Both the position numbers and the translations under genes were made by a program. A stretch of DNA of 20,000 nt from an uncultured virus (IMG/VR IMGVR_UViG_3300046694_000251) (taxonomy: Duplodnaviria; Heunggongvirae; Uroviricota; Caudoviricetes), in the IMG/VR virus record IMGVR_UViG_3300046694_000251; one strand, 5' to 3'. The notes beneath the pieces are model-generated. The model made no database searches, was not told where the DNA came from, and saw only the letters and a list, made by a program, of their open reading frames with translations. Each line of letters starts with the position of its first letter. Within the stretch, counting starts at the first letter, position 1. Shown piece by piece: positions 1,455 through 20,000 of the stretch.

Positions 1455-2066
1455 ATGCTTACCAACTACGCCGACGTGGCGGCCCTCGCCGTCGGCCTGG
1501 TCCTGCCCGCCATCGTGGCGGTGTTCACCAAGCCGTCGACCAACCCCACCGTCAAGGGCTTCGCGCACGCCGTCCTGGCCCTCGCCACCGGCTCCCTGGC
1601 CACCTACAAGGCCGACCCGTCGAACTTCGTGTGGGCGCCCGCTGTGATCGCCGCGTTCCTGGCCTGGCTGTCCGGCACGGCGTTCTACCACTCCCTGCTG
1701 AAGAAGTACTCCTGGTTCGGTGCGCTCCAGAACCTGTTCGTGTCCGAGGTCGAGAGCCGTCTTAATACCCACGGCGCCGACGTCGAGCGGTACTTCGAGG
1801 TGGCGCAGGCGGCCGAGCTGGCCGAGGACGCGCAGGGCATCACCAACGACTTCCCCTTGAGCACCGACGTGGTTCAGTCCGGCGTGGAGGAGGCCGTCAA
1901 GGCGGCCGAGGAGATCCCCGTCGTCGGCACGGTCGTCCAGCGCTTCGAGACGGTCGCGGTCCCGGCGATCATTACGGCCGTGGAGGCTGTCGCGGCGCCG
2001 GTCGTCGAGAACTCCACCCCTGCCGTCGCTGTGCAGCCTGGCGGCCTGGGTCCGAGGGCGATCTGA
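1455..2066 (+). CDS. Putative holin (N-terminal ~3 transmembrane helices, long acidic C-terminal tail)
   Basis: Three hydrophobic stretches in the first ~85 aa; AAGGA RBS upstream; position at the end of the tail block. Confidence 0.55.
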   Translation: MLTNYADVAALAVGLVLPAIVAVFTKPSTNPTVKGFAHAVLALATGSLATYKADPSNFVWAPAVIAAFLAWLSGTAFYHSLLKKYSWFGALQNLFVSEVESRLNTHGADVERYFEVAQAAELAEDAQGITNDFPLSTDVVQSGVEEAVKAAEEIPVVGTVVQRFETVAVPAIITAVEAVAAPVVENSTPAVAVQPGGLGPRAI

Positions 2067-2068
2067 CC

Positions 2069-2356
2069 ATGGACTGGTTCCGGCTGCTGCTGATCGCCTT
2101 CGCCACCTTCACCGCGTGGGAGTGGCTGCGCGACGTCCTGCCTGTCGCTATCCCGGCCGCCCTTCAGCCGCCCGTGGTCGTGGGGCTGGCCTACGAGGTG
2201 CAGCGTGTTCCCGGCCCGTGGCTGGCCGCTGGGGCGGCTGCTGGAGTCGTGGCGGTACTGCACGCGCAGGTACGGGGCAGCGGGGCGGAGACGGCCTCTC
2301 TGCGCCTGCCGCGCAGGCACCCGAACACAGGGCGGCGAGTTCCCGACCTCCCCTGA
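2069..2356 (+). CDS. Small membrane protein, possible lysis accessory
   Basis: 95 aa with hydrophobic segments and a basic C-terminus; starts 2 nt after the holin-like stop and is followed by a terminator. Confidence 0.55.
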   Translation: MDWFRLLLIAFATFTAWEWLRDVLPVAIPAALQPPVVVGLAYEVQRVPGPWLAAGAAAGVVAVLHAQVRGSGAETASLRLPRRHPNTGRRVPDLP

Positions 2357-2371
2357 TTGTCAAGCACAAGC

Positions 2372-2407
2372 AAAACCCCGCTAGACAAGCGGGGTTTTCT
2401 TGCTTTT
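2372..2407 (+). terminator. Intrinsic, probably bidirectional, terminator ending the structural/lysis operon
   Basis: AAAACCCCGCT (2372-2382) and AGCGGGGTTTT (2388-2398) form a perfect inverted repeat with a 5-nt loop, followed by the T-rich CTTGCTTTT. Confidence 0.8.
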
Positions 2408-2428
2408 AGAAGCCGTAATGGCTAAGGT
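2400..2428 (+). promoter_or_regulatory. Candidate sigma70/HrdB-type promoter with a GAAGCCGTAAT motif in its spacer
   Basis: TTGCTT (2400-2405) - 17 nt - TAAGGT (2423-2428), immediately after the terminator. Confidence 0.4.
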
Positions 2429-2477
2429 CTTCCTTGTTGCCAACCACGGCAGCGACCACCACAACACTGGAGCAGAC

Positions 2478-3707
2478 TTGAGCAAGCAGCCCATCACCCT
2501 GGCCTTCGCTGGTTCCGCCGACATCGACCCCGAGAATGTCAAGGACCTGCTCAACGACTGGCTCGGCTTCGGCGACGAGGACAAGGACGGCTTCTTCGAG
2601 CCGAGCGACCGCGAGATCAACCTCATCTTCCCGGTCACCCGGGAGCACCTGTCCGACGGCCTGGAAGCGGTCCTCGGCTGGGCCGAGAAGGCCGACCTCC
2701 CCTACGTCGCCGTCGCCGACAACAAGCGCAGCCGCGCCACCGAGCAGATCCTCAAGGACGCCGAGGAGACCGTCCACGTCGCCAACGTCACGGCCGGTGT
2801 GGTCGACCTGCTGAAGAAGGCCGACAGCGCGGGCGACGAGGTCCACGTCATCCTGCTGTGGGGCGACGAGGGCAGCGAGCAGGCCGAACTCCTCCTGGAC
2901 GCCGCCGACCAGGCGGGCTTCAAGGCCAAGGACCTCACCGCCGGACTCGACGACATCTCCTTCGGTGAGCAGCCGCAGGCCGAGGAGCCGGAGGAGGAGC
3001 CCCAGCCGGAACCCGAGCCGGAGCCCGAGCCGGAGGCCCCCAAGCGTGGTCGCCGTCGTGGCCGTCGCTCTGAGCCCGAGGAGGCCGAGCCGGAGGAGGA
3101 GCCGCTGACCGAGGAGGACGCGCCGGAGGAGCCCAAGCAGGAGGAGCCCAAGCGCGGCCGTCGCGGTCGCAAGGTCGAGCCGGAGCCCGAGGAGCACCCG
3201 GTCGAGCAGGACATCCAGGAGCAGCAGGAGGACCTGGAGCAGGAGGTCAACCGCGCCGCGCAGAAGATCCAGCGTGAGGCCACCCCGGTCCCCGACAAGG
3301 AGATCGACCTCATCCTCATCGGCAACGCTTTGGAGGGTGCCTACAACGCCTTCCGCCTGGAGGACGAGCGCAACGCGGTCATCAACCAGGCCGAGGTACG
3401 CCTCCGGCCGCTGACCGAACTGCTGGCCAAGGCGCTTAATATCGTGGCCGACTCGGTCCACGACAAGGAGGCCGAGGAGCAGGAGCGCCCGGCCGAGAAG
3501 AAGGCCGAGGAGCCGGAGGAGGAGCAGACCTCCGGACGCCGTCGCCGTGGACGTCCGCGCGACGAGAGCAAGACGTTTGCCTTCCTGGTCGACGACGAGG
3601 GCAACTACAGCCGTCGCGGCCGTGGCCGTATCCCGGCCGGACAGACCGTCGTACACCTGACCCGGGCGGAGATCGAGGAGAAGGGCCTCGAACTCGACTC
3701 GGAGTGA
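2478..3707 (+). CDS. Hypothetical protein: globular N-terminal domain, acidic Glu/Pro-rich linker, Arg-rich AT-hook-like motifs
   Basis: Same frame as the tracked 2400..3707 ORF. TTG at 2478 is preferred because GGAG lies at 2469-2472. Contains KRGRRRGRR, KRGRRGR, RRRRGRPR and RGRGRIPA. Confidence 0.75.
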   Translation: MSKQPITLAFAGSADIDPENVKDLLNDWLGFGDEDKDGFFEPSDREINLIFPVTREHLSDGLEAVLGWAEKADLPYVAVADNKRSRATEQILKDAEETVHVANVTAGVVDLLKKADSAGDEVHVILLWGDEGSEQAELLLDAADQAGFKAKDLTAGLDDISFGEQPQAEEPEEEPQPEPEPEPEPEAPKRGRRRGRRSEPEEAEPEEEPLTEEDAPEEPKQEEPKRGRRGRKVEPEPEEHPVEQDIQEQQEDLEQEVNRAAQKIQREATPVPDKEIDLILIGNALEGAYNAFRLEDERNAVINQAEVRLRPLTELLAKALNIVADSVHDKEAEEQERPAEKKAEEPEEEQTSGRRRRGRPRDESKTFAFLVDDEGNYSRRGRGRIPAGQTVVHLTRAEIEEKGLELDSE

Positions 3708-3712
3708 GTAAC

Positions 3713-3771
3713 GCAAAAGCCCCCGGCGCTGAAGAGGTTCGAGACCTCAATTCACTGCCGGGGGCTTTTGC
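3713..3771 (+). terminator. Long stem-loop, terminator-like
   Basis: GCAAAAGCCCCCGGC (3713-3727) and GCCGGGGGCTTTTGC (3757-3771) form a perfect 15-bp inverted repeat, with inner stems TGAA/TTCA and GAGGT/ACCTC. Confidence 0.65.
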
Positions 3772-3821
3772 CCACCACACCCCGAGGCCCACCACAAACC
3801 CCGAGATGGGAAGAACCTAAC

Positions 3822-3869
3822 ATGTCGAGCCGACTTAATATCAACGGCGGATTCGGAGCCGCCGAGTGA
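3822..3869 (+). CDS. Putative 15-aa leader mini-ORF (MSSRLNINGGFGAAE)
   Basis: ATG at 3822 after purine-rich GGGAAGAA; its TGA overlaps the GTG start of the initiator gene (GTGA); carries CTTAATATC in frame. Confidence 0.35.
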   Translation: MSSRLNINGGFGAAE

Positions 3870-4879
3870 GCATCCTGATCATGTCGGAAGTGTTCACGCA
3901 GTCCGACACCCGCCTGGCCACGCGCCTCGTTCTGCTCGCGCTGGCGGACGCGGCCAACGACTCCCACCGCATGTGCTGGGAGTCCGTCGACACCATCGCG
4001 GCCAAGGCCCGGGTCTCCCGACGGCAGTGCTTCACCGCGCTGTCGACCCTGGAGGACCGGCGCATCGTCGAGCACGTCTCGGACGAGGAGAAGCCCGCCG
4101 AGGCGGAGCGGTACAAGTCCGTGGTCCGCAGGATTCTGCCGGTGTCCGAGTGGCTGCCGGAGCCTGCTAAGGGTGCAGAATCCGCACCCCCCTCTAAGGG
4201 TGCAGAATCCGCACAGGTGTCGAATTTTTCACCCAACCCCAATAACCAACTGGAAGTTAGAGATATAGAAGAAACTACGTTTCTTCCACCGCGCCGGTCG
4301 GCACGGTCCGATCCCGGCGGAGCCGAGGAGATCCCTACGAGGCCGGGTGCTCGTGGCTGGGATGCCGTGGCCGCTCCTCGTCGTGGCGGCCGGAAGAAGA
4401 CCCGGAAGCAGGTGGCGGAGGAGGCTGCCCTGGCCGAGAAGGAACTCGACCCGGCGTTCGTCGTGGCCCAGGCTCTCGGAGAGGACACCCCATCCTTCAG
4501 CCTGTACGGCGATCTCCCGGCCTCGGACGGTGACCTGGCCCCTCCGGTCCGGCGACCTCGTGAGAAGCGCTCCAGGAGGCCGTCGGAGGAACTGGCGGAG
4601 TTCTTCGGCAAGCGGGCTCAGGGGGTAGGCCATCCGGTACCCGGTCCGGTCAACCTTGGAGCCCTCACCGGACAGTTCGGCCGGTGGATGCGCGAGGGTC
4701 TGGAACGAGAGGCAATCCGGCAGATGATCATCACCTACTGGTCGTCCTCCTGGAACCGCTCGGAGAACCATCCGGCGTGGAAGGACTTCCTCGCCGCCCG
4801 TGGTCTGTTGACGGAGCGGCTGGGCAAGGCCGAGAACACGATGGAGAAACACCGGCACGACGAGTCCTTCTGGGACTGA
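3866..4879 (+). CDS. Phage replication initiator protein (N-terminal winged HTH)
   Basis: The N-terminus RLVLLALADAAND...CWESVDTIAAKARVSRRQCFTALSTLED matches the typical phage initiator HTH pattern. Has internal direct repeats and sits upstream of a DnaC-like loader. Confidence 0.75.
   Translation: MSILIMSEVFTQSDTRLATRLVLLALADAANDSHRMCWESVDTIAAKARVSRRQCFTALSTLEDRRIVEHVSDEEKPAEAERYKSVVRRILPVSEWLPEPAKGAESAPPSKGAESAQVSNFSPNPNNQLEVRDIEETTFLPPRRSARSDPGGAEEIPTRPGARGWDAVAAPRRGGRKKTRKQVAEEAALAEKELDPAFVVAQALGEDTPSFSLYGDLPASDGDLAPPVRRPREKRSRRPSEELAEFFGKRAQGVGHPVPGPVNLGALTGQFGRWMREGLEREAIRQMIITYWSSSWNRSENHPAWKDFLAARGLLTERLGKAENTMEKHRHDESFWD
4167..4214 (+). repeat. Two 21-bp direct repeats (iteron-like), CTAAGGGTGCAGAATCCGCAC
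   Basis: Identical copies at 4167-4187 and 4194-4214 (27-bp period), followed by an AT-rich tract at about 4222-4285. Confidence 0.85.
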
Positions 4880-4886
4880 TGCCACC

Positions 4887-4927
4887 AGGGGCGGGCTGCT
4901 ACGGCGGTCCGCCCCTTACGTTTACTT
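4887..4927 (+). terminator. Intrinsic terminator after the initiator gene
   Basis: 13-bp stem (4887-4899/4904-4916, two G-U pairs) closed by a C(UACG)G tetraloop, followed by TACGTTTACTT. Confidence 0.7.
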
Positions 4928-4954
4928 GAAGGCGTATTCTGGAAGGCGTAATCT
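4926..4954 (+). promoter_or_regulatory. Candidate promoter overlapped by tandem GAAGGCGTA(T/A)T repeats
   Basis: TTGAAG (4926-4931) - 17 nt - TAATCT (4949-4954); repeats at 4928-4938 and 4942-4952. Confidence 0.45.
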
Positions 4955-5001
4955 GTGGTAGCCTCCTGAGCGTTGAACCACCACCACACGAGGAGGCCAC
5001 G

Positions 5002-5661
5002 ATGGCGACAGACCCCCGGGTCCACGCCCTGCGGCTCAAGGAGTACGGCATCCCCGCGCACTACAGGGCCCTTCGACTTAATACCGTGGCGGACGCCCCT
5101 GAGCGCGCCGCCTGCAAGACCTGGCTCGACGAACTGCGCGACCACTACGTCACCGACAAGCGGCCCCTCACGGAGTACCCCGAGGACTGGTCCCGGATCG
5201 GCAAGGGTCTGCTGCTCGTGGGCCCGCCCGGCACCGGAAAGACCACCCTGGCTACCGCCACGCTGCTGGAGGTCTACTACGCCCACCGGCTCCCGGTGCA
5301 CTGGCTGGCCTACGCCGACTTCGTGAAGGACTCCATCGAGAAGATGGGCCTCCAGGACCGCAGCGAGCCCGAGGCCGTCGCCCGGTGGTGGGAGATCCAG
5401 GACAAGATCGTGGCGGCCGAGAAGGCCCCCGTCCTCGTGCTGGACGACGTCGGCAAGGAGCACCGCACCAAGACCGGCTACGCCGAGGGCCTGCTGGACA
5501 CCCTGCTGCGCCAGCGGCACCGCGAGGCCCGGCCCACGATCGTCACCTCGAACCTCCCGCCCCGGGAGTGGGGTGCCGTCTACAACCCCACGATGGGCTC
5601 CTTCATCCAGCAGGCATTCACACACGTCAAGTTGATCGGAGAGGACCGCCGTGCAGCCTGA
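5002..5661 (+). CDS. DnaC/IstB-like AAA+ ATPase, helicase loader
   Basis: Walker A GPPGTGKT, Walker B VLVLDDVGKE, and PTIVTSNL; strong GAGGAGG RBS. Confidence 0.88.
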   Translation: MATDPRVHALRLKEYGIPAHYRALRLNTVADAPERAACKTWLDELRDHYVTDKRPLTEYPEDWSRIGKGLLLVGPPGTGKTTLATATLLEVYYAHRLPVHWLAYADFVKDSIEKMGLQDRSEPEAVARWWEIQDKIVAAEKAPVLVLDDVGKEHRTKTGYAEGLLDTLLRQRHREARPTIVTSNLPPREWGAVYNPTMGSFIQQAFTHVKLIGEDRRAA

Positions 5662-5884
5662 ACACACGCAGCCGCCGCTCCCGTTCGAGGACGAGGTTTT
5701 GGTGCTTCTCTACAAACGCGAAGTGCCGGACCACCGCCTCCCCGAGCACTGGGCCTCCCTGGAGTGGACCCTCCGCAGCCGCGCCAAGCACCTGGGCTTC
5801 GACCTCGTACGCACCCGCCGGTTCCAGAAGTGGGAGGGCGACACGCTTAATATCTCGCTCCGCGCGGAAGCGGAGCGCACCTGA
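5651..5884 (+). CDS. Hypothetical protein (77 aa)
   Basis: GTG with a GAGG RBS; overlaps the upstream stop; its TGA overlaps the next ATG. Confidence 0.6.
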   Translation: MQPEHTQPPLPFEDEVLVLLYKREVPDHRLPEHWASLEWTLRSRAKHLGFDLVRTRRFQKWEGDTLNISLRAEAERT

Positions 5885-6342
5885 TGGAACGGGGCGACAT
5901 CTCCAACGAGGTCGTCCCCCGCTTGGTCATCGCCTACGAGGGCATGCTCGGCGTCCTGCCGGAGAAGCCCGAGGGGTACGTGCACGAGCTGGTTGCCCGC
6001 AAGTTCGGGCGCCGCGCGCGGCTGGCCAAGCGGACCGTGGACGCGTACGAGATCAACGACGCGCTGGCCCGGGTCATCTGGGACACCGTCTGGCGCTTCA
6101 AGTACTCGGTCGACGTCGTCACCTACCTCGGTGAGGACGCCGTCGAGCCGCTGGAGGCCCGCCTGGACGCCGAGGGACTTCCCATCGGCCGGGTGTGGGC
6201 CACGACCCCTGAACGGCTGGCCAGACGCCTGCCCTACATGCCGGACGTCGCCGCGATCTTCGACAACGAACACCACCTGATCTTCGGCAGCAAGGGCCGC
6301 ACCCTGCCCGCTGCCCCCACCACCCTGATAGGGGCTATGTAA
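5884..6342 (+). CDS. Hypothetical protein (possible degenerate HAD-like fold)
   Basis: 152 aa, high GC3, tightly coupled to both neighbours. The fold suggestion is a weak impression only. Confidence 0.7.
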   Translation: MERGDISNEVVPRLVIAYEGMLGVLPEKPEGYVHELVARKFGRRARLAKRTVDAYEINDALARVIWDTVWRFKYSVDVVTYLGEDAVEPLEARLDAEGLPIGRVWATTPERLARRLPYMPDVAAIFDNEHHLIFGSKGRTLPAAPTTLIGAM

Positions 6343-7611
6343 GTGGCTGACTTCGAGCGCTTGCTCGTGTCCCGCGTCATCCAGGACAAGGACCTGGCCG
6401 ACGTCGCGGACGCGGGCATCACCGCCGAGTTCTTCGGCGACCCGGACAACAAGGCCGTCTTCAAGTCCATCCTGCGGCACAAGGCGACGTACGGCGAGAT
6501 CCCCAGCCTCGCCACCATCAAGACCGACTTCCCCACGTACCGGTTCGTCAAGGTCGAGGACAGCATGCAGGTGCTGACCGACCGGCTGCGCGAGCAGCAC
6601 ACCCTCGACCTGCTGGAGCAGGGCCTGGCCGACTCAGTCGACGCCCACGAGGAGGGCAACGCGCTGGCCGCCATGGCGGCCCTGCACAAGACCCTCGCGG
6701 ACATCGCCTCAGCGGTCCCCAACGCCCGCGACACCGACCTGACGGAGACCGGCCAGGCGCGTCTTGCGCGGTACCTCACGCTCAAGGACCTGCCGGACGG
6801 GCTGCGGGGCATCCCCACCGGCTTCAACACGATCGACAGGGCCACTCAGGGACTCCAGAAGGAGCAGTTGGTCACCTTCGTCGGTCCGCCGAAGGCCGGT
6901 AAGAGCACCCTGCTGTTGTTGGCCGCCATGGCTGCGCACCTGCACGGGGAGCGCCCGCTTTTTATCGGCTTCGAGATGAGTAATGAGGAGCAGGAGGAAC
7001 GTTTCGACGCCATCCGTGCGGGGATTTCCCACGCCCGGCTGAGAAACGGAACGCTCAAGAAGGCCGAGTGGGACAAACTCGAAAGGGCCCTGCGGGAACT
7101 GGAGGCTATGCCCTCGTTCTTCCTGTCCTCGGACTCCATGAATGCGACGACGCTCACCGGTGTGCAGTCGAAGATCGACCACATCCGGCCGACGATCGTA
7201 TTCGTGGACGGCATCTACATGATGCAGGACGAACTCGGCGAGGCTCAGGGATCCAGCCAGGCGCTTACCAACCTCACCCGAGGATTCAAGCGCATGGCGA
7301 AGAACCTGCAACTCCCGATCGTCATTTCCACGCAGGTCCTGGAATGGAAGATGAACAAGAAGAAGGGCATCACTTCCGACTCGATCGGATATTCGTCCTC
7401 CTTCGCCCAGGACTCCGACGTGATTCTCGGTGTCGAATCCACGGACGACGCGAACATCAACAAGATCAAGGTCGTGCTGGCCCGTAACTGCCCGCCCCTG
7501 GAGACCTACTGCCAGTGGGACTGGGAGACCGGCAAGTTCGAGGAACTGAACGAGGACCCGTTCGCCATGGACGAGGTGAACACCGATGGCTATGTCGGCG
7601 CCTCCTTCTGA
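6343..7611 (+). CDS. dnaB: DnaB-like replicative helicase
   Basis: GIPTGFNTID, Walker A GPPKAGKST, FIGFEMS, IVFVDGIYMM, KRMAKNLQLPIVISTQ and SSSFAQDSDVILG correspond to SF4 helicase motifs. Confidence 0.92.
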   Translation: MADFERLLVSRVIQDKDLADVADAGITAEFFGDPDNKAVFKSILRHKATYGEIPSLATIKTDFPTYRFVKVEDSMQVLTDRLREQHTLDLLEQGLADSVDAHEEGNALAAMAALHKTLADIASAVPNARDTDLTETGQARLARYLTLKDLPDGLRGIPTGFNTIDRATQGLQKEQLVTFVGPPKAGKSTLLLLAAMAAHLHGERPLFIGFEMSNEEQEERFDAIRAGISHARLRNGTLKKAEWDKLERALRELEAMPSFFLSSDSMNATTLTGVQSKIDHIRPTIVFVDGIYMMQDELGEAQGSSQALTNLTRGFKRMAKNLQLPIVISTQVLEWKMNKKKGITSDSIGYSSSFAQDSDVILGVESTDDANINKIKVVLARNCPPLETYCQWDWETGKFEELNEDPFAMDEVNTDGYVGASF

Positions 7612-7888
7612 GCCCCGGCTGGTGGTCCTCGCCGGGAACTACCGGGAGTTCCAGTTCTGGTGTTACGAGAACGAGCGCAATCCCCGTGACCGGAATCTGA
7701 TATACGCCAGCGAATGGTACCGGCTGCGGGGACTCGGACCGGTCCGCTACATCACGTACGGAACCTGGTACATGCGCCGCGACGCCTGGGAAATGAAGAG
7801 CTACCTCGAATACCTGGAGAGGAGATACCAGTGCCCCGAGCAAAAGCGGGATGGGACGCAATCGGTAATCCCGTCCCCGGAAACGTGA
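7586..7888 (+). CDS. Hypothetical protein (100 aa)
   Basis: GAGGTG RBS upstream; aromatic-rich, protein-like sequence filling the helicase-primase gap; 3' end overlaps the primase start. Confidence 0.6.
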   Translation: MAMSAPPSEPRLVVLAGNYREFQFWCYENERNPRDRNLIYASEWYRLRGLGPVRYITYGTWYMRRDAWEMKSYLEYLERRYQCPEQKRDGTQSVIPSPET

Positions 7889-8805: not shown

Positions 8806-8850
8806 ATGACCCGGCTTAATACCTGCCCCCGCAAGGGGGACCACCGATGA
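8806..8850 (+). CDS. Putative 14-aa mini-ORF (MTRLNTCPRKGDHR)
   Basis: AGGAGA RBS just before ATG 8806; its TGA overlaps the next ATG (ATGA); carries CTTAATACC in frame. Confidence 0.45.
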   Translation: MTRLNTCPRKGDHR

Positions 8851-12032: not shown

Positions 12033-12503
12033 ATGAACACCATCGCCGACACCATCGACAAGGCATTCGCCGAGATCGGTGAGCAGTTCTACCCCGGATC
12101 GACGCGCCCCCTGGTACGTCACCGCAACCGGCTTAATACCGAGGCCGCCCCGTCGGCGGCCGATCCCGGAGCATGGGATGCCAAGCCCCGTAAGTACGTC
12201 GTGGCCGGAGTCGAGACGGAGTTCTTCACCGTCGGCGACCTCGCCAAGGCGCTGGGACGGCAGCCCGTGACGATCCGGAAGTGGGAGCGGGAAGGGGTCA
12301 TCCCCAAGTCCACCTACCAGTCGCCGGGCAAGGACGGAGATGTACGCGGCCGACGCCGTCTGTACACCCGCCAGCAGGTCGAGGGCATGGTGCGCATCGC
12401 CTACGAGGAAGGCGTCCTCGTCTCCCACCAGAAGCCGATCAAGGGCACCCGCTTCACCGAGCGCATCGTCGACCTCTTCAAGGTCCTGGCGGGCGACGAG
12501 TGA
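12033..12503 (+). CDS. MerR-like helix-turn-helix DNA-binding protein
   Basis: FTVGDLAKALGRQPVTIRKWEREGVIP...GRRRLYTRQQV is a MerR-type wHTH signature; AGGAG RBS. Confidence 0.8.
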   Translation: MNTIADTIDKAFAEIGEQFYPGSTRPLVRHRNRLNTEAAPSAADPGAWDAKPRKYVVAGVETEFFTVGDLAKALGRQPVTIRKWEREGVIPKSTYQSPGKDGDVRGRRRLYTRQQVEGMVRIAYEEGVLVSHQKPIKGTRFTERIVDLFKVLAGDE

Positions 12504-12736: not shown

Positions 12737-13549
12737 ATGCCCCGCACCCTTACCCGCCGCCGCACCGCCCGCGACACCGAGGCGTACTCCCCGGCCGACG
12801 AGCCGGAGGACGAGAAGGGCTACGCGGAGGAAGAGGACGAGGCTCCGGCCCGTGGCTCCCGCCGTGGCTCGCGCCGGTCGCTTAATACCGAGGAGGCCGA
12901 CACCTCCCGACGCTCGCGCCGTGCCTCGCGTGACGAGGACGACGACGAGGACGACGAGCCCGCGCCGAAGGTCGGCGGCCGTGGCTGGGGCTCGTACGAG
13001 AAGACCAAGCAGGCGTCCTCCGGCTTCCCGGACAACTTCAAGGCGGGCAGCGAGTCCGTGATCGTGAAGATCCTGGACGAGGAACCGTTCCTGGTCTTCC
13101 TCCAGCACTGGATCGAGCGCTCGGGCAAGAAGTCCTTCACCTGCCTGGAGAGCAAGTGCCCGCTGTGCGACGACGCGGGTGACAAGCCCAGCCAGCAGAT
13201 CTCCTTCAACGTCATCGACTTCACCGACCCCGAGGACCCGCAGGTCAAGGTCTGGCAGGTCGGCCCGATGGTCGCGGACATCCTGAAGAACTACTCCAAG
13301 GACAAGAAGACCGCCCCGATCAACCGGGACGACCTCTACTTCTCCGTCCGCAAGGAGACCAAGAACAAGAAGACCAACTACTACATCACGCCGGTCAAGG
13401 AACGTGACCTCCTCGACGACTGGGACATCGAGCCTCTGACCGAGGAGGACCTGGAGACGTTCGACGCCAAGGCGTACGACGCGGACATCCTCCAGGTCAC
13501 CCGTCGCAGCGAACTCAAGACCATCGTCCGGGAAATCCTGAACGACTGA
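12737..13549 (+). CDS. Putative single-stranded DNA-binding protein (gp32-like) with charged N-terminal extension
   Basis: QHW...FTCLESKCPLC zinc-like motif, FNVID, VKVWQVG and TNYYITP; located directly before the DNA polymerase. Confidence 0.55.
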   Translation: MPRTLTRRRTARDTEAYSPADEPEDEKGYAEEEDEAPARGSRRGSRRSLNTEEADTSRRSRRASRDEDDDEDDEPAPKVGGRGWGSYEKTKQASSGFPDNFKAGSESVIVKILDEEPFLVFLQHWIERSGKKSFTCLESKCPLCDDAGDKPSQQISFNVIDFTDPEDPQVKVWQVGPMVADILKNYSKDKKTAPINRDDLYFSVRKETKNKKTNYYITPVKERDLLDDWDIEPLTEEDLETFDAKAYDADILQVTRRSELKTIVREILND

Positions 13550-13602: not shown

Positions 13603-13628
13603 CCCATCCACCACCACCGGAGCCCGCC

Positions 13629-15608
13629 GTGCAGATCCGCAACTCCGTCATCCTCACCCCCGACCGGCTTAATACCGTGGTCGAGCGCTTCATGGAGCGC
13701 CCGGCCTTCACCTTCGACATCGAGACGTTCGGCGCCTTCCGGAACGTCCCGACGCAGAACGTCGCCAACTGGATCTCCCTGGCCGCCGACGGCATGGCCT
13801 ACGCCATCCCCTTCGGCCACCCCAACGGCGACGTCCTGGTGAGCAAGGCCACCCGCAAGAAGAACCGGCTGACAGGCAAGTTCGACGCCATCCCGGCCGT
13901 CTACGACGCCCCGCCGGAGCAGATGCTCCCGTCCGAAGTGTTCAGCATCCTCAAGCCGCTGTTCTTCGCCGAAGACAAGATCAAGATCGCGCACAACGCC
14001 ACATTCGACCTGATCTCCACGGCGAAGTACTGGGGCGAGATCGCACCGCCGGAGTACTCCGACACGATCGTCCTTCAGTGGTTGTGCGACGAGAACATGA
14101 AGCAGAAGGGCCTCAAGGAACTCGTCAAGCGCTACTACAAGGTCGACTACGACACCGAGAACGTCGGCAAGCAGGTCGAGGCCCACCCGTTCTCCAAGGT
14201 CGCGCACTACGCCTACATGGACGCCAAGTACACCTGGCTGCTGTGGAAGCGGTTCCAGCGGCAGATCCAGGAGCAGGGCCTGACTCACGTCCGGCGGCTG
14301 GAGGAGGACGTCCTGGGGGTGCTGCTCGACATGGGCATCACCGGGGCGCCGGTCGACGAGGCCGCGATGCGCGAGCTGGTCACGGACATGTCCGCCCGGC
14401 TGGTCGACATCGAGGCGGACATCTACCGGGCCGCAGGCAAGCAGTTCAACCTCAACGCCCCGGCGCAGAAGGCCGAGGTGCTGTACGCCCCCAAGAGCGA
14501 GGGCGGCCAGGGCCTCAAGCCGATGAAGCCCACCGACGGTGGGAAGAAGAAGCGGGACACGGGCCAGGCGCTGGAGTGGAAGGACTTCAGCACCGACTCC
14601 GACAGCCTGGAGAAGCACGAGAACAACGCGGTCGTCAAGAAGCTGCTGGAGTACGCGGAAGTCAGCAAGCTGCTCGACTACCCCATCGCGTACCTCGGTG
14701 TGGAGGGCGACCCGAAGAAGCCGTGCCGGATCTTCGACGGCCGGATCCACGCCGACTTCGTCCAGTACGGAACGGTGACCGGCCGGTTCTCCTGCCGCGA
14801 ACCCAACCTCCAGAACATCCCCCGACCCGACACCGACCTCGGTAAGCGGATCCGTGGCCTGTTCGTCGCGCCGCCCGGCTACAAGCTGGTCGTCGCGGAC
14901 TACGGGCAGATCGAACTCGTCGTGCTCGCGCACTTCATCGGTCGTGGTGACCTCTACAAGGGGTTCCACAACGGAGTCGACCCGCACTCGGCGACGGCCG
15001 CCGCGCTCATGGGCGTGGACCCGCAGGAGTTCATGCGGCGGGTCAAGGAAGGCGACCGCACCTGTATCGACTTCCGCCAGGTCGCCAAGGGCATCAACTT
15101 CGCCGTCGTGTACGGCGCGGGCCCGGACAAGGTCGCCTCGATGGCAGGCATCACCGTGAAGGAAGCCAAGCGCTTCATGGAGATGCACCAGAAGATGTTC
15201 CCGGAGGTCTACCGCTTCAAGGAGGAAGTGGTACGGGTCTGCCGGTCGCGTCGGCCTCCGCACATCCGCACCCTGCTCGGCCGCAAGCGGCGCCTGCCGC
15301 TCATCCTCAGCCAGAACAACGGCCTGCGGATGGGTGCCGAGCGCCAGGCGGTGAACTCCCTGATCCAGGGGAGCGCGGCCGACCTGATCAAGTTGGCGAT
15401 GATCCGGCTGAACAACGCCCTGCCGGACGATATGCGCCTGATCCTCTCCGTGCACGACGAACTCGTGACGCTCGCGCCGGAGGACCGGGCCGAGGAATGC
15501 GCCGCACTGGTGAAGGAAGCCATGCTCGGCGAAGGAATCCAGAAACTGCTAAAGGTTCCGCTCTCTTCGGACGTGAAGATCGTGGACCGCTGGTCGGAGG
15601 CAAAGTAA
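13629..15608 (+). CDS. polA: Family A DNA polymerase with 3'-5' exonuclease (no 5'-3' exonuclease domain)
   Basis: Exo I FDIET, Exo II AHNATFD, Exo III YAYMDA; TGRFSCREPNLQNIP; motif A ADYGQIELVVLAH, motif B RQVAKGINFAVVYG, motif C SVHDEL. Confidence 0.96.
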   Translation: MQIRNSVILTPDRLNTVVERFMERPAFTFDIETFGAFRNVPTQNVANWISLAADGMAYAIPFGHPNGDVLVSKATRKKNRLTGKFDAIPAVYDAPPEQMLPSEVFSILKPLFFAEDKIKIAHNATFDLISTAKYWGEIAPPEYSDTIVLQWLCDENMKQKGLKELVKRYYKVDYDTENVGKQVEAHPFSKVAHYAYMDAKYTWLLWKRFQRQIQEQGLTHVRRLEEDVLGVLLDMGITGAPVDEAAMRELVTDMSARLVDIEADIYRAAGKQFNLNAPAQKAEVLYAPKSEGGQGLKPMKPTDGGKKKRDTGQALEWKDFSTDSDSLEKHENNAVVKKLLEYAEVSKLLDYPIAYLGVEGDPKKPCRIFDGRIHADFVQYGTVTGRFSCREPNLQNIPRPDTDLGKRIRGLFVAPPGYKLVVADYGQIELVVLAHFIGRGDLYKGFHNGVDPHSATAAALMGVDPQEFMRRVKEGDRTCIDFRQVAKGINFAVVYGAGPDKVASMAGITVKEAKRFMEMHQKMFPEVYRFKEEVVRVCRSRRPPHIRTLLGRKRRLPLILSQNNGLRMGAERQAVNSLIQGSAADLIKLAMIRLNNALPDDMRLILSVHDELVTLAPEDRAEECAALVKEAMLGEGIQKLLKVPLSSDVKIVDRWSEAK

Positions 15609-16075
15609 TGGGACTCTTCAGTTGGAAGAAGGACGACGAAGTGCCCGACGGGCTTAATACCGAGGAGGAAGACCTCCAGGTCGACCTCTACACCCCGCAA
15701 ATGCTGACCAAGCGGCTGCTCTGGGACATCGTCCCGTGCAGCCAGGTCGAGGCACTGATCCCGCTCATGAACCTCACCCCGGACAGCCAGGACGTCTCCG
15801 AAATGGAGCACCAGGCCAGTCACGACCGAATCGACCAACTCACACCGCTGAGGGAAATGCTAGCGCTGCTCATCCCGCTAGTTTCTGGCATTACTGCCTC
15901 GGCTATGCTGGTTAACTCTGGCAATTCCATGGACGAGGAAACCGCAGCAGTTCTCCAGCGGCATCATTCCGTAGTCGTCCGCGCCGGAGTAGTGGCGGTC
16001 CTCGCCAATCTCCTCGATATGGGAATCATCAGTTACGCGGATGGAGTGCAGTTCGGTGACCAACTTCTGGGCTAA
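15608..16075 (+). CDS. Hypothetical protein
   Basis: ATG 15608 overlaps the polymerase TAA (TAATG); in frame with the tracked 15497 ORF. Confidence 0.7.
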   Translation: MGLFSWKKDDEVPDGLNTEEEDLQVDLYTPQMLTKRLLWDIVPCSQVEALIPLMNLTPDSQDVSEMEHQASHDRIDQLTPLREMLALLIPLVSGITASAMLVNSGNSMDEETAAVLQRHHSVVVRAGVVAVLANLLDMGIISYADGVQFGDQLLG

Positions 16076-16502
16076 CAAACTGGGGGCGGCCCGACCGGCC
16101 GCCCCGGCCCCGGCCCCGGCGCCGGTCCAGCAGCAGCAGGTCGGCGGCCCGTGGTGGGCCACCCCGCAACAGCAGCCCTACCCCCCGCAGCAGGTAGTCC
16201 AGCAGACAGTGCCAGAACCACAGCAGAAGGCTCCGGCCCGCGCGATGGTGGCCAAGCAGGACACCCACTGCCCGGAGTGCCAAGGCACGAACTACTTCCG
16301 CCCCGTGGGAATGATGAACGCGATGGCTCAGTGCTACGAGTGCGGCTACAACCCGCGCTTCCAGCAGAGCACCGCCGGACTGCCGTCCGGCAGCGGAGGA
16401 GACGGTCCCGCCACCCCAGCCAAGCAGATCGCGTCCGGCGGTCTGGGAGGCCGGAGCAACTACAACCCGGGCGCCATCATCAGGGCCGACGGCTCGGTCT
16501 AG
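16056..16502 (+). CDS. Pro/Gln-rich protein with a zinc ribbon (CPEC...CYEC)
   Basis: GTG 16056 after GGAG (16043-16046); two CxxC pairs. Confidence 0.7.
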   Translation: MTNFWANKLGAARPAAPAPAPAPVQQQQVGGPWWATPQQQPYPPQQVVQQTVPEPQQKAPARAMVAKQDTHCPECQGTNYFRPVGMMNAMAQCYECGYNPRFQQSTAGLPSGSGGDGPATPAKQIASGGLGGRSNYNPGAIIRADGSV

Positions 16503-16533
16503 CGCCCACTCCTCCCTGACGCATCACTACTGA

Positions 16534-18495
16534 ATGGAATTACTGGTGACCTCCCTGCTCACCCCCGCCGGTGACCTTGCCGACCCTTACCGCTCCTTCA
16601 TCGCGAAAAGCCGATACTCCAGGTGGATCGAGGAGGACAACCGGCGCGAGACCTGGTCCGAGACCGTCGCCCGATACGTGACGTTCATGCTCGGCCAGTT
16701 GAAGGACAAGCACGACTACATCCCCGACCGTGCCGTGGTCGACGAGATCCACGCGGCCATCCTCAACCACGAGGTCATGCCGTCCATGCGCGCCGTTATG
16801 ACGGCCGGGCCCGCCCTGGACCGCTCGAACATCGCGGGCTTCAACTGTTCGTACCTCCCGCTGAAGGACGCCCGCGCTCTGGACGAGCTGCTGTACGTCC
16901 TCATGAACGGCACGGGCGTGGGTTACTCGGTCGAGAGCAAGTACACCGACCAGTTGCCTGCCGTTCCGGCCGTCCTGCGTGCGGCTGCTGACGTGATCGT
17001 GGTCGAGGACTCCAAGGAGGGCTGGGGTTACGCGTTCCGGTCCCTGCTGGAGGGCCTGTGGCAGGGCGAGGTGCGTCACTGGGACCTGTCCCAGGTGCGA
17101 CCGGCGGGCGCACGTCTTAATACCTTCGGAGGGCGAGCCTCCGGCCCGGGTCCGCTGGACGACCTGTTCACCTTCACCGTGCAGAAGTTCCACGAGGCCG
17201 CCGGTCGCAACTTCCGGCCGATCGAGGTCCACGACATCGCCTGCAAGATCGCGTCCGTAGTGGTCGTCGGTGGTGTCCGCCGGTCGGCGATGATCTCCCT
17301 GTCCGACCTGGACGACCGCGAGATGGCCGAGGCCAAGAGCGGGGAGTGGTGGGTCGAGCACCCCTACCGCGCCCTGGCGAACAACTCGGCCGTCTACACC
17401 GACGGCATGCGCTACGAGGACTTCCACACCGAGTGGGACTCCCTCGTAGCCAGCGGCTCGGGCGAGCGCGGCATCTTCCACCGTGGGGCGGCGCAGAGGC
17501 AGGCCGCGAAGTTCGGGCGCCGGGAGGAGGACACCGACTACGGGACCAACCCCTGTAGCGAGATCATTCTGCGGCCGTTCTCGTTCTGCAATCTCTCCGA
17601 GGTCGTCGTGCGGCCGGAGGACACCCCCGAGGACTTGTACCGCAAGGTGCGCCTGGCGTCCGTCCTGGGCACCTGGCAGAGCACGCTGACCGACTATCCC
17701 TACCTGCGCGAGGAGTGGCGTAAGAACGCGGAGGAGGAGCGCCTGCTGGGTGTCTCCCTCACCGGGGTCTACGGCAACCGCTGGACCAACGGCACGGTCA
17801 ACCTGAAGACGACCGAGGTGCTGCTGGCGGACCTGCGCGGGAGTGTGGTGGAGGCCAACGCGGCCGAGGCTGCCCGCATCGGTATCCAGGCGTCGGCTGC
17901 GACCACCTGCGTCAAGCCGTCCGGCACGGTCTCCCAGTTGGTCGACTGTGAGTCCGGCCTGCACCAGAAGCACGCGAAGTTCTACAAGCGGCGGGTGCGG
18001 GTGGACAAGAAGGACCCGATCGCGTTCGTGCTCATCGACTCGGGCCTGCCGTACGAGGAGGACTCCTACAACTCCGCCGCGTGGGTGTTCACCTTCCCGC
18101 AGAAGGCAGGCGAGGACGCCCTGGTACGTGACGACGTGAGCGCCATCGAGCACCTGGAATTGTGGTTGGCCTTCCAGAGGCACTGGTGCGAGCACAAGCC
18201 GTCGGTGACCATCAGCGTCCGCGAGCACGAGTGGGAGCAGGTCGGCGAGTGGGTGTGGGAGCACCTGGCCGAGATCTCTGGTGTCTCCTTCCTGCCCTTC
18301 AGCGAGCACACGTACGTCCAGGCGCCGTACGAGGAGATCACGCGGGAGGAGTACGAGGCGCTGGCGGCCAGGAAGCAGCGCGTGGAGTGGTCGGACCTGG
18401 CGTTCTACGAGACCTTCGACCAGACCAAGGGATCGCAGGAACTGGCCTGCTCGGCGGCCGGTGGCTGTGAGGTCGTGGACCTGGTGACCACCTGA
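16534..18495 (+). CDS. nrdJ: Class II (adenosylcobalamin-dependent) ribonucleotide reductase
   Basis: MPSMRA, FNCSY, GTGVGYSV, VVVGGVRRSAMISL, GTNPCSEI, TCVKPSGTVSQL, WCEHKPSVT and C-terminal CSAAGGC. No beta subunit gene is adjacent. The start may be GTG 16546. Confidence 0.93.
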   Translation: MELLVTSLLTPAGDLADPYRSFIAKSRYSRWIEEDNRRETWSETVARYVTFMLGQLKDKHDYIPDRAVVDEIHAAILNHEVMPSMRAVMTAGPALDRSNIAGFNCSYLPLKDARALDELLYVLMNGTGVGYSVESKYTDQLPAVPAVLRAAADVIVVEDSKEGWGYAFRSLLEGLWQGEVRHWDLSQVRPAGARLNTFGGRASGPGPLDDLFTFTVQKFHEAAGRNFRPIEVHDIACKIASVVVVGGVRRSAMISLSDLDDREMAEAKSGEWWVEHPYRALANNSAVYTDGMRYEDFHTEWDSLVASGSGERGIFHRGAAQRQAAKFGRREEDTDYGTNPCSEIILRPFSFCNLSEVVVRPEDTPEDLYRKVRLASVLGTWQSTLTDYPYLREEWRKNAEEERLLGVSLTGVYGNRWTNGTVNLKTTEVLLADLRGSVVEANAAEAARIGIQASAATTCVKPSGTVSQLVDCESGLHQKHAKFYKRRVRVDKKDPIAFVLIDSGLPYEEDSYNSAAWVFTFPQKAGEDALVRDDVSAIEHLELWLAFQRHWCEHKPSVTISVREHEWEQVGEWVWEHLAEISGVSFLPFSEHTYVQAPYEEITREEYEALAARKQRVEWSDLAFYETFDQTKGSQELACSAAGGCEVVDLVTT

Positions 18496-18878
18496 TGTAC
18501 GAGTACAACGCCGTAGTGACCGACGTCCATGACGGCGACACCATCACGGTGAACCTGGACCTGGGCGTCGGCACCTGGCACCACGACTTCCACGTCCGGC
18601 TGATCGGCGGCAACGCGCAGGAATTGAAGGACCCGGGGGGCGAGGAGGCACGGCAGAACCTGGCCGGTCTCCTGCCCCTCGGCAGCCGGGTCGTCGTCCG
18701 CTCGCACAAGGCGGGCAAGGACATCGAGCCCGACAAGTTCGGCGGCCGGTGGCTGGCGGATGTAACGCTGCCTGACGGCCGCGACCTAGTCGCCCACCTC
18801 ATCGAGCAGCAGTGGCTGGCACCGTGGGATGGCAGCGGGAAGAAGCCGGTGCCCCCGTGGCCTCGGAAGATTCCCTAA
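18495..18878 (+). CDS. Thermonuclease (staphylococcal nuclease-like)
   Basis: YEYNAVVTDVHDGDTI, VRLIGGNAQEL and DKFGGRWLADV match SNase motifs. Confidence 0.85.
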   Translation: MYEYNAVVTDVHDGDTITVNLDLGVGTWHHDFHVRLIGGNAQELKDPGGEEARQNLAGLLPLGSRVVVRSHKAGKDIEPDKFGGRWLADVTLPDGRDLVAHLIEQQWLAPWDGSGKKPVPPWPRKIP

Positions 18879-18911
18879 AGATCTTGCTCTGACTAGTTGA
18901 TACGTAGCTGG

Positions 18912-18952
18912 ACCGGTAGTCCCTAACCGATTACGGTATTGGGACTACCGGT
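18912..18952. repeat. 12-bp perfect inverted repeat (terminator or operator)
   Basis: ACCGGTAGTCCC (18912-18923) and GGGACTACCGGT (18941-18952), with an inner ACCG/CGGT stem; followed by TCTGCTTT. Confidence 0.7.
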
Positions 18953-18998
18953 TCTGCTTTACGGCTTCGGCATTACGGGATTGGAAGACACACCACAC

Positions 18999-20000
18999 AT
19001 GGCACTTAATACCTGCGCGGGCGGCCCCGACAAGGAAGCCCTCGCGCTCATCGCAAAGATCAACAAGGAACACCCGGGCGCAGTCTGTTTCGCCTCCGAG
19101 ATGCGCATCCCCAAGCGGTTCACCTCCGGCTCCCTGAGCCTGGACATCGCCCTCGGCGGCGGCTGGCCGGGCAACCAGTGGGTCGAGGTCATCGGCCGCG
19201 AGTCCCACGGCAAGACCGCCATCGTCTACAAGACCCTCGCGGCCAACCAGAAGAAGGACCCCAACTTCACCTGCCTGTGGATCGCCGCAGAGCACTACGA
19301 CGTCGACCAGGCCGAAGCCCTCGGCGTCGACAACGAGCGCGTCCTGGTCGTCCCCACCCAGGCCATGGAGTTCGCCTACCAGACCATGCTCGACTTCGCC
19401 GCCAGCCGGTCCGTCGACATGATCGTCCTCGACTCCTACCCGGCGCTCATCGCCGACGAAGAGTCGGAGAAGGACATGGACGAGGCGACCATGGCGCTGG
19501 GCGCCCGCCTCACCGGCAAGTTCTTCCGCAAGTCCGGGGCGGCCACCAAGCGATCCATGACGGACACCGACGACCGGCCGCTGCTGGGGATCGTCATCAA
19601 TCAGTACAGGGATGCGATCGGGAAATTCTCCCCGCACGGCACGCCGACCACGACCCCAGGCGGCAACGCCAAGAACTATGCCTTCTACACGCGCGTCGAG
19701 GTCCGGCGCGATGAGTGGATTCAGGAGGCCCGGCCCGGAAAGGGCAAGGTGAACGTCGGCCAGGTCATCAAGGTCAAGACGATCAAGAACAAGTCGGCCG
19801 CCCCGCAGCAGACCGCGACCATCGACTTCTACTTCCGCTCCGCCCCGTTCCTGAACTTCGCTCGCGGTGACTACGACACCGTGAAGGAGATCATGATCAT
19901 GGGGATCCTCTTCGACGTCATCCAGCGCAAGGGCGCCTACTTCCAGATCGACAACGGGGAGTACGACGACAAGGGCAAGCCGGTCCTGCGCTGGCAGGGC
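18999..20000 (+). CDS. recA: RecA-like recombinase (3'-truncated; missing from the ORF track)
   Basis: Open from ATG 18999 to the window end: TSGSLSLDIALGGGWP, VEVIGRESHGKT, MIVLDSYPAL, IVINQYRDAIG, TTPGGNAKNYAFYTRVEVRR and VKTIKNK. Confidence 0.92.
   Translation, partial: MALNTCAGGPDKEALALIAKINKEHPGAVCFASEMRIPKRFTSGSLSLDIALGGGWPGNQWVEVIGRESHGKTAIVYKTLAANQKKDPNFTCLWIAAEHYDVDQAEALGVDNERVLVVPTQAMEFAYQTMLDFAASRSVDMIVLDSYPALIADEESEKDMDEATMALGARLTGKFFRKSGAATKRSMTDTDDRPLLGIVINQYRDAIGKFSPHGTPTTTPGGNAKNYAFYTRVEVRRDEWIQEARPGKGKVNVGQVIKVKTIKNKSAAPQQTATIDFYFRSAPFLNFARGDYDTVKEIMIMGILFDVIQRKGAYFQIDNGEYDDKGKPVLRWQG

Follow-up and report, generated by a model that had tools for sequence, protein, structure and literature searches.

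The 9-nt word CTTAATAYC is written repeatedly, in a single orientation and a single reading frame, into the genes of an uncultured virus (IMG/VR record IMGVR_UViG_3300046694_000251), of which we analysed one stretch of 20,000 nucleotides, referred to here as the window. The observations argue strongly that the word is a selected nucleic-acid signal laid over the protein code, as the initial annotation of this DNA had inferred: its abundance exceeds a codon-aware null, its rare codons are kept at orthologous sites, and one of its letters has been switched in concert across a whole lineage of related phages. The word is usually followed by a predicted hairpin of free sequence, a feature which had escaped the initial annotation, and the translating ribosome is a possible reader of the combined element.

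All 12 copies of CTTAATAYC in the window lie on the + strand, at exactly the positions first reported, and there are 0 on the - strand. Dinucleotide shuffles of the window (n=200) contain a mean of 0.00 copies. A randomization that preserves the encoded proteins, as the initial annotation had called for, is obtained by shuffling synonymous codons within the called genes; the shuffled windows (n=1000) then contain a mean of 3.04 copies on the + strand and 0.006 on the - strand. Three of these 3.04 are the copies at 3834, 8815 and 15653, which fall outside the called genes and so lie beyond the reach of the shuffle. Thus, the chance level by synonymous shuffling is about 0.04 copies, compared with nine observed in the called genes of the window. 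Those nine are read in the frame CTT-AAT-AYC, and the other three of the 12 stand in the same frame after a nearby in-frame start codon. The reported extension of six copies to CTTAATAYCG(A/T)GG, and the 17-mer common to positions 12880 and 15652, were both recovered. The claim that the base at position -1 of the word is never C holds for the 12 window copies but fails as a rule, for C occupies that position in 11 of the 78 copies found in two complete relatives, G002 and G003, in which G is preferred (51/78). The preferences in the flanks, G at -1 and K-A-G-G at +9 to +12, can be put down to the beginning of the stem described below. The flank table holds no conserved column outside -3 to +12, so there is no second, distant element. 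We found no published description of the word among the papers listed in literature searches, including work on coding-strand motifs and rare codons in Streptomyces phages, and a megablast search of the window against GenBank phages gave no match.

In the record nearest to the window, G001 (73.9 kb, 97% identical), the gene strand has 28 copies and the opposite strand 0. Pfam and PHROG scans describe a myovirus of actinobacterial flavour, with sheath, tube and baseplate genes, a set of replication and nucleotide genes (DnaB, DnaG-type primase, SNF2 helicase, PolA, class II ribonucleotide reductase, RecA, ThyX), and WhiB-, SpoVS- and Lsr2-like genes. Its PolA is 51% identical to those of the Streptomyces phages BRock and Alone3, whose gene order it shares, and a 203-kb contig of Streptomyces sp. 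NPDC002088 contains an integrated relative with 90% PolA identity (prophage G034). Because of its integrases, its kinship to BRock and Alone3, and this integrated relative, we take the source of the window to be a temperate Streptomyces phage of about 105 kb. In complete relatives the word is the top strand-biased 8-10-mer of a k-mer scan. The strand bias noted in the window extends to whole genomes, with 35-39 sense and 0-1 antisense copies in four complete relatives: 39 and 1 in G002, 39 and 1 in G003, 37 and 0 in G004, and 35 and 1 in G005. The first of these four carries the word as the window has it (A-type), and the other three carry a sister form (C-type). The more distant G007 (47.5 kb; PolA 69%) holds a few C-like 8-mers, 4 sense and 0 antisense. 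The word is absent from BRock, Alone3 and the BRock-like G006, and the idea of an analogous word in distant relatives was dropped after an unbiased k-mer scan of G006 returned only tRNA T-arm words.

The lysogen provides an internal comparison. The genome of Streptomyces sp. NPDC002088 contains 72 copies of the word in total, of which 39 lie in the 104-kb prophage (38 sense and one in the integrase block). The remaining ~10.6 Mb holds 33 copies, 19 on the + and 14 on the - strand, against 13 for a reversed-letter control. Copy density therefore differs about 100-fold between the prophage and the rest of the host, and the host copies have no orientation. Host polar words, that is, Chi sites, FtsK-orienting polar sequences (KOPS) and uptake sequences, are therefore rejected as readings, among them the Chi/KOPS-like option raised initially.

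We surveyed the form of the word at 44 loci around PolA relatives, several of which come from near-identical phages, so that these are not 44 independent cases. Only CTTAATAYC (the A form) is present in 25 loci, and CTTCATAY(C/T/G) (the C form) in 16, two of which also hold one A word each; no A-type locus contains a C word. At nine of the ten alignable window sites, CTTCATAC- replaces the window's CTTAATAC- in at least one C-type relative; the exception is 15653, and the sites at 1761 and 3435 lie outside the surveyed loci. For example, C-type relatives carry CTTCATACT at the place equivalent to 3834, and at 5077 four of five aligned C-type loci have CTTCATACC/G, with CTCAAGGCC in L049. The switch exchanges Asn for His in every protein concerned, and the selected object is therefore the nucleic acid together with its reader. 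In a FastTree PolA tree rooted on BRock, as in the identity matrix, G007 branches first, followed by the C-type lineages, with the A-type nested among them. By these two analyses the C form is likely the older state; a more careful PolA tree gave no resolution. In one gene two copies of the word stand close together, 27 nt apart in G001 (reverse complement 49777, 49804) and 21 nt apart in the C-type prophage G034 (C18:136147, 136168). The first of these paired places reads CTGAACACC (Leu-Asn-Thr in common codons) in C-type G003, and in G034 it is already CTTAATACC, beside a CTTCATACC.

The reading frame of the word is strict. Codon phase 0 is occupied by 30 of 30 genic copies in A-type G002 and by 24 of 24 exact genic copies in C-type G003. 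Near matches to CTTCATACC in G003 are distributed quite differently: with two mismatches, 40/60 lie in phase 2 and 11/60 in phase 0, and with three mismatches, 283/509 lie in phase 2 and 137/509 in phase 0. The initial annotation had ascribed the fixed frame to the TAA and the rare TTA codon which the alternative frames would create. This could account for the frame lock of the A form but not for that of the older C form, because CTTCATACC contains no stop or TTA in any frame and is nonetheless in frame in all 24 cases. Nor are the codons required in the other frames avoided: each genome uses ATA 35-47 times and TCA 60-62 times. Of the 34 L-N-[TI] tripeptides encoded in G002, 30 are spelled CTTAATACC; therefore the word creates the tripeptide, and not the reverse. 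A motif at the peptide level was rejected, as the flanking codons are unconserved and the common Leu-Asn-Thr codons are hardly used. Copies outside long genes are translated in frame as well, in mini open reading frames (ORFs) whose start codon lies 2-4 codons upstream. Insertions and deletions between start codon and word are multiples of 3, as at 8815, where 3-nt indels keep the frame among relatives, and at the RecA site the ATG stands exactly 6 nt upstream in 15 of 15 distinct sequences.

All genes except those of one small block run in one direction, and this block bears on orientation. It contains the single reverse-strand copy, in a conserved small ORF beside the reverse-strand serine integrase. 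In this ORF, five codons separate the ATG from the in-frame word, and a 6-7-bp hairpin follows after 2 nt. This copy has the A form in G002 and the C form in G003, and G005 likewise has a C copy on the reverse strand. Orientation thus follows the gene and not a fixed strand, as seen at this one locus; the test of gene direction against fixed strand had been proposed at the outset, and its outcome disfavours the nicking, packaging and replication roles suggested for a strand-bound signal. At the start of G002 (1-4105, L079) a 693-aa serine recombinase (reverse, with a DUF4096 transposase-like tail) adjoins a 380-aa tyrosine integrase (forward).

To characterize the DNA following the word, we compared the 78 copies of G002 and G003 with 3805 control windows. 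The 30 nt past the word fold at a mean of -10.6 kcal/mol, compared with -6.2 in controls (Mann-Whitney p = 1.7e-20), and 77% of copies, versus 27% of controls, fold at -8 kcal/mol or lower. No such structure is predicted for the 30 nt upstream (-5.8). Pairing begins at offset 2 in 34/78 copies and at offset 0-2 in 57/78; in the window it begins 0-2 nt past the word in 10 of 12 copies, those at 1761 and 3435 being atypical. The word itself is predicted to be open, with a mean unpaired probability of 0.75-0.89 at positions 3-6 (counted from 0), versus 0.15-0.25 on the 5' stem arm at +11 to +15. Median sizes are 7 paired bases for the stem and 5 nt for the loop. At orthologous sites, stems are better conserved than loops and flanks, with compensatory double changes. 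For example, the 7-bp stem at 12132 shows two independent compensatory changes among 18 sequences (GC->AU and GC->CG at one pair), and the stem at 12881 shows a double change GC->CG. At 13668 and 8815, other lineages carry an unrelated hairpin in the same place: L069 has a different 7-bp hairpin at 13668 (where L074, at 69% identity, has no word), and hairpins also differ between relatives at 8815.

The tRNA genes of these phages were compared between the two types. All genomes that include the tRNA region encode tRNA-Pro(UGG), Phe(GAA), Leu(CAA) and Asn(GUU). C-type genomes add an 86-nt tRNA-His(GUG), present in five of the five with the region (G003, G004, G005, G019 and prophage G034) and in none of the four A-type genomes covering it (G002, G015, G021, G025), the A lineage having, of tRNA-Asn and tRNA-His, an ordinary tRNA-Asn only. 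The tRNA-His(GUG), in which G-1 pairs with C73 and a long, class-II-like variable arm has a 5-bp stem and a 4-nt loop, is conserved with compensatory changes in four stems among the five C-type genomes. In the lysogen genome its only match lies inside the prophage. A literature search turned up no phage tRNA-His with a long variable arm, and we know of no tRNA-His whose variable arm is as long. It is suggestive, as one evolutionary event, that the CAU lineage has a phage tRNA for CAU and that the lineage switched to AAU lost this tRNA and kept tRNA-Asn. The tRNA sets also fit the asymmetry noted above: C-type genomes, with both tRNAs, tolerate A words, and A-type ones contain no C word.

The word is modestly enriched at gene ends. 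Among 57 copies in called genes, 17 lie at most 20 codons from the first possible start or at most 15 from the stop, where 17% would be expected (p = 0.012); the other 21 of the 78 copies are in ORFs not called as genes, which are short or weakly biased. Of the copies in G002 and G003, 18 stand 0-15 codons before a stop, and in nine of these 18 the stop overlaps the start codon of the next gene, with the hairpin over or beside that gene's GGAG/GAGG or start codon. The window offers instances. At 5846, the TGA 5882-5884 overlaps the ATG of the next gene at 5884, and the 3' arm of the hairpin contains the GGAG upstream of that ATG; the mini-ORF 8806-8850 has a stop that overlaps the ATG of its neighbour at 8847. 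The start 15 codons upstream of the copy at 15653 is an ATG just past the PolA stop. At 19005, a leader beginning at ATG 18999 is fused in frame to RecA as an N-terminal extension in the lineage of the window; in C-type phages (L042, L043, L046 and others) the same ATG opens a separate 11-codon leader ORF (MRLHTYGGPC*) whose TGA overlaps a TTG start of RecA. The arrangement of leader ORF and hairpin is thus found at 3822-3869, 8806-8850 and 5846-5884 of the window and at the C-type RecA leader. Of importance for annotation, several copies mark short leader ORFs and mis-called gene starts. The word is missing from a stretch of 15-18 kb made up mostly of small genes with no assigned function (G002 72326-87634; G003, reverse complement, 83747-101924), and a second gap of 10-14 kb falls in tail and baseplate genes.

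One copy is special. The sequence …CTT-AAT-ACC-TAG ends an ORF that precedes a clade-specific gene, whose product is a membrane protein (DUF2637-like) carrying a helix-turn-helix at its C terminus. The word is matched here by an anti-word farther downstream, (A)ATACCT pairing with AGGTAT(T). The partner base in the anti-word is T in four of four A-type genomes and G in four of four C-type genomes, so that the pairing follows the switch. The anti-word shares only (A/C)ATACC with the word, without the invariant CTT. It is followed by a 10-bp hairpin and then by a conserved CCTGTCCCACC..CGAGAGG stretch before the ATG. This copy could be a word-hiding RNA hairpin or a palindromic DNA operator. The coordinates of the window copies, of this leader and of the tRNA-His genes are collected in Table 1.

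Table 1. Copies of the word with their predicted downstream stems (each element being the word plus its stem), and associated leaders and tRNA genes. Positions are those of the window unless a record is named; energies in kcal/mol.
Feature	Position	Strand	Stem (energy)	Context
Word CTTAATACC	1761-1769	+	1777-1803 (-8.0)	In frame, about codon 102 of ORF 1455-2066; stem atypical, begins 7 nt past word
Word CTTAATATC	3435-3443	+	3452-3476 (-13.1)	In frame near end of ORF 2400-3707, 87 codons before stop; stem atypical, begins 8 nt past word
Mini-ORF MSSRLNINGGFGAAE*	ATG 3822 to TGA 3867-3869	+		15 codons, upstream of replication-initiator-like gene
Word	3834-3842	+	3845-3864 (-11.7)	Codon 5 of mini-ORF 3822-3869
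Word CTTAATACC	5077-5085	+	5086-5115 (-15.2)	25 codons past ATG 5002 of IstB/AAA loader-like gene
Word CTTAATATC	5846-5854	+	5856-5877 (-17.7)	9 codons before stop TGA 5882-5884
Mini-ORF MTRLNTCPRKGDHR*	ATG 8806 to TGA 8848-8850	+		14 codons, AGGAG ribosome-binding site in front
Word	8815-8823	+	8826-8839 (-12.5)	Codon 4 of mini-ORF 8806-8850
Word	12132-12140	+	12143-12161 (-15.9)	Codon 34 of MerR-like gene 12033-12503
Word	12881-12889	+	GGAGG/CCTCC within 12890-12908 (-8.7)	Codon 49 of ORF 12737-13549 (position of single-stranded-DNA-binding protein by synteny with phage Alone3)
Word	13668-13676	+	13679-13706 (-17.8)	Codon 14 of DNA polymerase I (13629-15608)
Word	15653-15661	+	15664-15689 (-13.9)	In-frame starts 4, 15 and 52 codons upstream
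Word	17116-17124	+	17126-17144 (-15.3)	Codon 195 of class II ribonucleotide reductase (16534-18495)
Word	19005-19013	+	19015-19047 (-19.0), predicted structure	ATG 18999 and one codon ahead
Special-copy leader	L098-L105; G002 87634-87720 (L083:7634-7720)			Upstream of membrane + helix-turn-helix gene
tRNA-His(GUG)	L090:1737-1822	-		G003
tRNA-His(GUG)	L107:1501-1586			
tRNA-His(GUG)	L108:74-159			
tRNA-His(GUG)	L109:74-159			
tRNA-His(GUG)	L110:64-149			

The surroundings of the tRNA cluster hold further genes of interest. Near it in G002 lie an RNA ligase and polynucleotide kinase pair of the tRNA/RNA-repair type (91126-93445; L083:11126-13445) and a gene for an Lsr2-like nucleoid protein (94869-95294). 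A ydaO-type riboswitch for cyclic di-AMP reaches the Rfam gathering threshold both in G002 (L083:15912-16051, +, 59.6 bits) and in G003 (L090:2995-3129, -, 71.9 bits); the former sits between tRNA genes, directly 5' of a gene for a 208-aa protein with endolysin, transglycosylase and minor-tail PHROG matches. Farther away, a 512-aa protein is encoded at G002 70527-72062 (L082:10527-12062), with a counterpart in G001 (L029:16077-17612) outside the window. It carries the PHROG label 'queuine tRNA-ribosyltransferase' and a weak atlas lead to DpdA (score 0.75), and it has no Pfam, NCBIfam or PDB sequence match. This DpdA-like protein is conserved down to BRock and Alone3, being annotated as hypothetical in the latter, and may be a sign of 7-deazaguanine modification of DNA or tRNA in this group of phages.

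It is important to ask what reads the word. We tentatively favour the view that word and hairpin form a sense-strand mRNA element read by the translating ribosome, which would pause, or be gated, at the rare NAU codon; we regard this as quite possible, if short of probable. An element of mRNA under translation is suggested because the word has the sense orientation, a strict frame, in-frame starts even outside long genes, and a hairpin that begins about 12 nt from the first base of CUU. Such an element would consist of CUU-(A/C)AU-A(C/U)C, that is, three fixed rare codons, then a spacer usually of 0-2 nt, and then a GC-rich hairpin of free sequence. If CUU occupied the P site and NAU the A site, the first base of the stem would fall some 12 nt downstream of the first P-site base. 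This is the distance at which structure meets the ribosomal mRNA entry channel in frameshift and pausing cassettes, and CUU is a classic shift-prone P-site codon. Each copy may then act as a programmed pause or gate whose passage depends on the decoding of NAU (AAU here, CAU in the sister phages), helped perhaps by the phage-encoded tRNA-Asn(GUU) or tRNA-His(GUG). At stop/start junctions or in short leader ORFs, the gate would couple or throttle the translation of the next gene, and in a lysogen it might serve as a fail-safe on lytic genes.

A bolder version of this view makes the word and hairpin the cis half of a decoding system owned by the phage, with the phage tRNAs as its trans half, such that passage, or even the residue inserted, at about 40 places would depend on a phage tRNA. 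In phages whose word holds CAU the trans half would be the long-arm tRNA-His(GUG), a role that would have passed to tRNA-Asn(GUU) once the word had changed to AAU. We consider this version unlikely.

Several known systems resemble parts of the proposed element. Recoding and pausing cassettes include frameshift sites with a stem-loop, CUU +1 sites of the prfB/Ty1 type, and the bacterial selenocysteine insertion sequence (SECIS) after UGA. Like these, the element has a frame-dependent codon signal and a hairpin within a few nucleotides, on the sense strand of coding sequence; its most frequent stem start, 2 nt past the word, is 5 nt past the NAU codon and within the range of 5-9 nt after the A-site codon found in frameshift cassettes. 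Unlike -1 frameshift cassettes, neither CUU-AAU-ACC nor CUU-CAU-ACC contains an X-XXY-YYZ heptamer, and unlike recoding cassettes generally, the element has no conserved trans-frame product and recurs about 40 times per genome in unrelated genes. SECIS systems employ a dedicated tRNA with a long variable arm; among the phages studied here the long-arm tRNA-His(GUG) is confined to the C lineage, the loops of the hairpins show no conservation, and the word has no stop codon in frame 0. In Streptomyces, the control of TTA codons by the bldA tRNA-Leu(UAA) likewise uses a very rare codon and the supply of one tRNA as a regulatory device. For bldA, however, the codon alone suffices, whereas here a fixed three-codon word is joined to a hairpin, the tRNAs are encoded by the phage, and the dependence on them is only presumed. 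Leader-peptide stalling (attenuation of the ermC/cat type, his and trp leaders) combines a short ORF, special codons and a hairpin over the next ribosome-binding site. The four leader arrangements listed above are similar, but only some copies are so arranged, half lie deep in long genes, and the same word is used genome-wide.

A number of observations weigh against a ribosomal reader. The enrichment at gene ends is modest, and about half of the sites lie deep inside long genes. To our knowledge no ribosomal mechanism needs a fixed word of 8-9 nt rather than one codon. The host has its own tRNAs for the codons concerned, and gating could therefore only be partial. The stem fails to start within 2 nt of the word in 21/78 copies. 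Moreover, the hairpins fold equally well when read antisense (-10.8 versus -10.6 kcal/mol), and thus folding is in itself no proof of an RNA role. Sense-specific G-U pairing had to be discarded as evidence for RNA, as G-U pairs are not enriched on the sense strand (41/567 versus 63/606). Reading off-frame past the word leads to no designed product or stop in the C form: in G003 the median distance to the first stop is 44 in the +1 frame, versus 33.5 in controls, and 76 versus 68 in the -1 frame. The A form does meet a TAA immediately in the -1 frame, but the older C form lacks it, and a frameshift product was rejected on these distances. The pattern of tRNA-His is a single phylogenetic event, so that 5/5 versus 0/4 does not amount to nine independent observations. 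Finally, the RNA data consist of contigs from relatives 90-99% similar, in four root-metatranscriptome runs, and carry no RNA-end or strand information; such contigs bridge the sites at 8815, 12881 and 15653.

Two of the options listed in the initial annotation, an mRNA binding or cleavage site and a stoperator-like site, remain as rivals ranked below the ribosomal reading. In the former, the single-stranded word 5' of the hairpin would be bound or cut by a phage RNA-binding protein or RNase, after the manner of a translational operator, of the boxA-boxB nut site of lambda, or of an RNA processing or stabilising site, and would control stability, antitermination or translation; the specificity of the reader would have changed from C to A. 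The word is indeed unpaired beside a variable hairpin and oriented with the gene, a lineage-wide switch implies a co-evolving reader, the co-varying anti-word at a conserved leader suggests that accessibility of the word in RNA matters, and many sites lie within the ribosome-binding region of some gene. Lambda nut sites are few and lose function when translated, and the start-associated sequences (SAS) of Cluster K phages lie upstream of start codons. The present element shares with nut a conserved single-stranded word beside a hairpin, and with SAS a repeated word tied to gene starts, but unlike both its copies are translated and frame-locked. An RNA-binding protein leaves the strict frame and the in-frame starts outside long genes unexplained; translation through the site would strip the bound factor; and the RNA contigs bridge three sites, although contigs cannot show cleavage. 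Nor does any of the MerR-like, SpoVS-like and membrane plus helix-turn-helix genes provide a candidate protein. The MerR-like protein, which the initial annotation had named for binding assays, and the SpoVS-like protein are both encoded in BRock, Alone3 and G006, all of which lack the word, so that the MerR-like gene is no specific candidate; the clade-specific membrane protein has a helix-turn-helix that shows no division into A and C types; and the DpdA-like protein likewise occurs in relatives without the word. We consider an RNA-binding or RNA-cleaving reader somewhat unlikely. A stoperator-like role, in which the word would be a duplex DNA site for a phage repressor or other DNA-binding protein that silences lytic transcription in the lysogen, draws on a known precedent. 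The stoperators of Cluster A mycobacteriophages (L5, Bxb1) are 13-bp duplex DNA sites bound by the immunity repressor (PMC6550527). They occur in temperate actinobacteriophages, where a short asymmetric word, pointing in the direction of transcription, recurs up to about 30-40 times, and their consensus differs between lineages together with the reader (PMC6550527). The phage studied here is temperate, with serine and tyrosine integrases and an integrated relative in a Streptomyces contig, and its roughly 40 asymmetric sites show the same orientation and lineage-specific consensus as described for stoperators (PMC6550527). In addition, the lytic-looking BRock, Alone3 and G006 lack the word, a helix-turn-helix gene is preceded by a palindrome made of the word and a partial inverted copy of it, and the hairpins are strand-symmetric. 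However, the word here is 9 nt long, and its strict frame would be superfluous for a DNA site; nearly all copies lie in translated frames and not between genes; a free-sequence hairpin at fixed spacing with compensatory changes has no role in the recognition of duplex DNA; the inverted partner lacks the invariant CTT; and the Pfam and PHROG scans found no repressor. We therefore hold a stoperator to be quite unlikely.

A co-evolving RNA-binding protein or DNA repressor could supply the need for a fixed word, but neither explains the frame. The frame is equally unexplained if the word is a polar DNA signal tied to one strand, such as a Chi/KOPS-like site, a nick, a start for primase on single-stranded DNA, or a packaging or modification signal. 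The extreme strand bias and a spacing of ~2.7 kb would suit such a signal, the hairpin could form in single-stranded DNA, and the phage has its own DnaG-type primase and DnaB helicase, as well as the DpdA-like gene (known by its PHROG label and weak atlas lead only). But the sole reverse copy sits in a reverse-strand gene and has switched between A and C along with the others, the word is not enriched in the host genome, and the DpdA-like gene is shared with relatives that lack the word; we find a polar DNA signal very improbable. An intrinsic terminator was rejected, there being no T run past the stems and no T enrichment in the flank table. A sigma-70-type or phage promoter was rejected in turn, as there is no second conserved element and transcripts begun at the copies in codons 3-5 would lack the start codon.

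If the word is read by the translating ribosome, it would overlay about 40 places in unrelated proteins with a second code strong enough to dictate the amino acids, and would be the translational counterpart of stoperators, with one short word controlling a temperate phage genome-wide. The switch of a single letter in all copies indicates that the word evolves as a unit with its reader. If the bolder version should hold, the phage would possess a genome-wide, codon-addressed switch between silent prophage and lytic growth. A culturable Streptomyces isolate with such a prophage makes the element directly testable, and it might yield an orthogonal, tRNA-addressed expression switch for Streptomyces.

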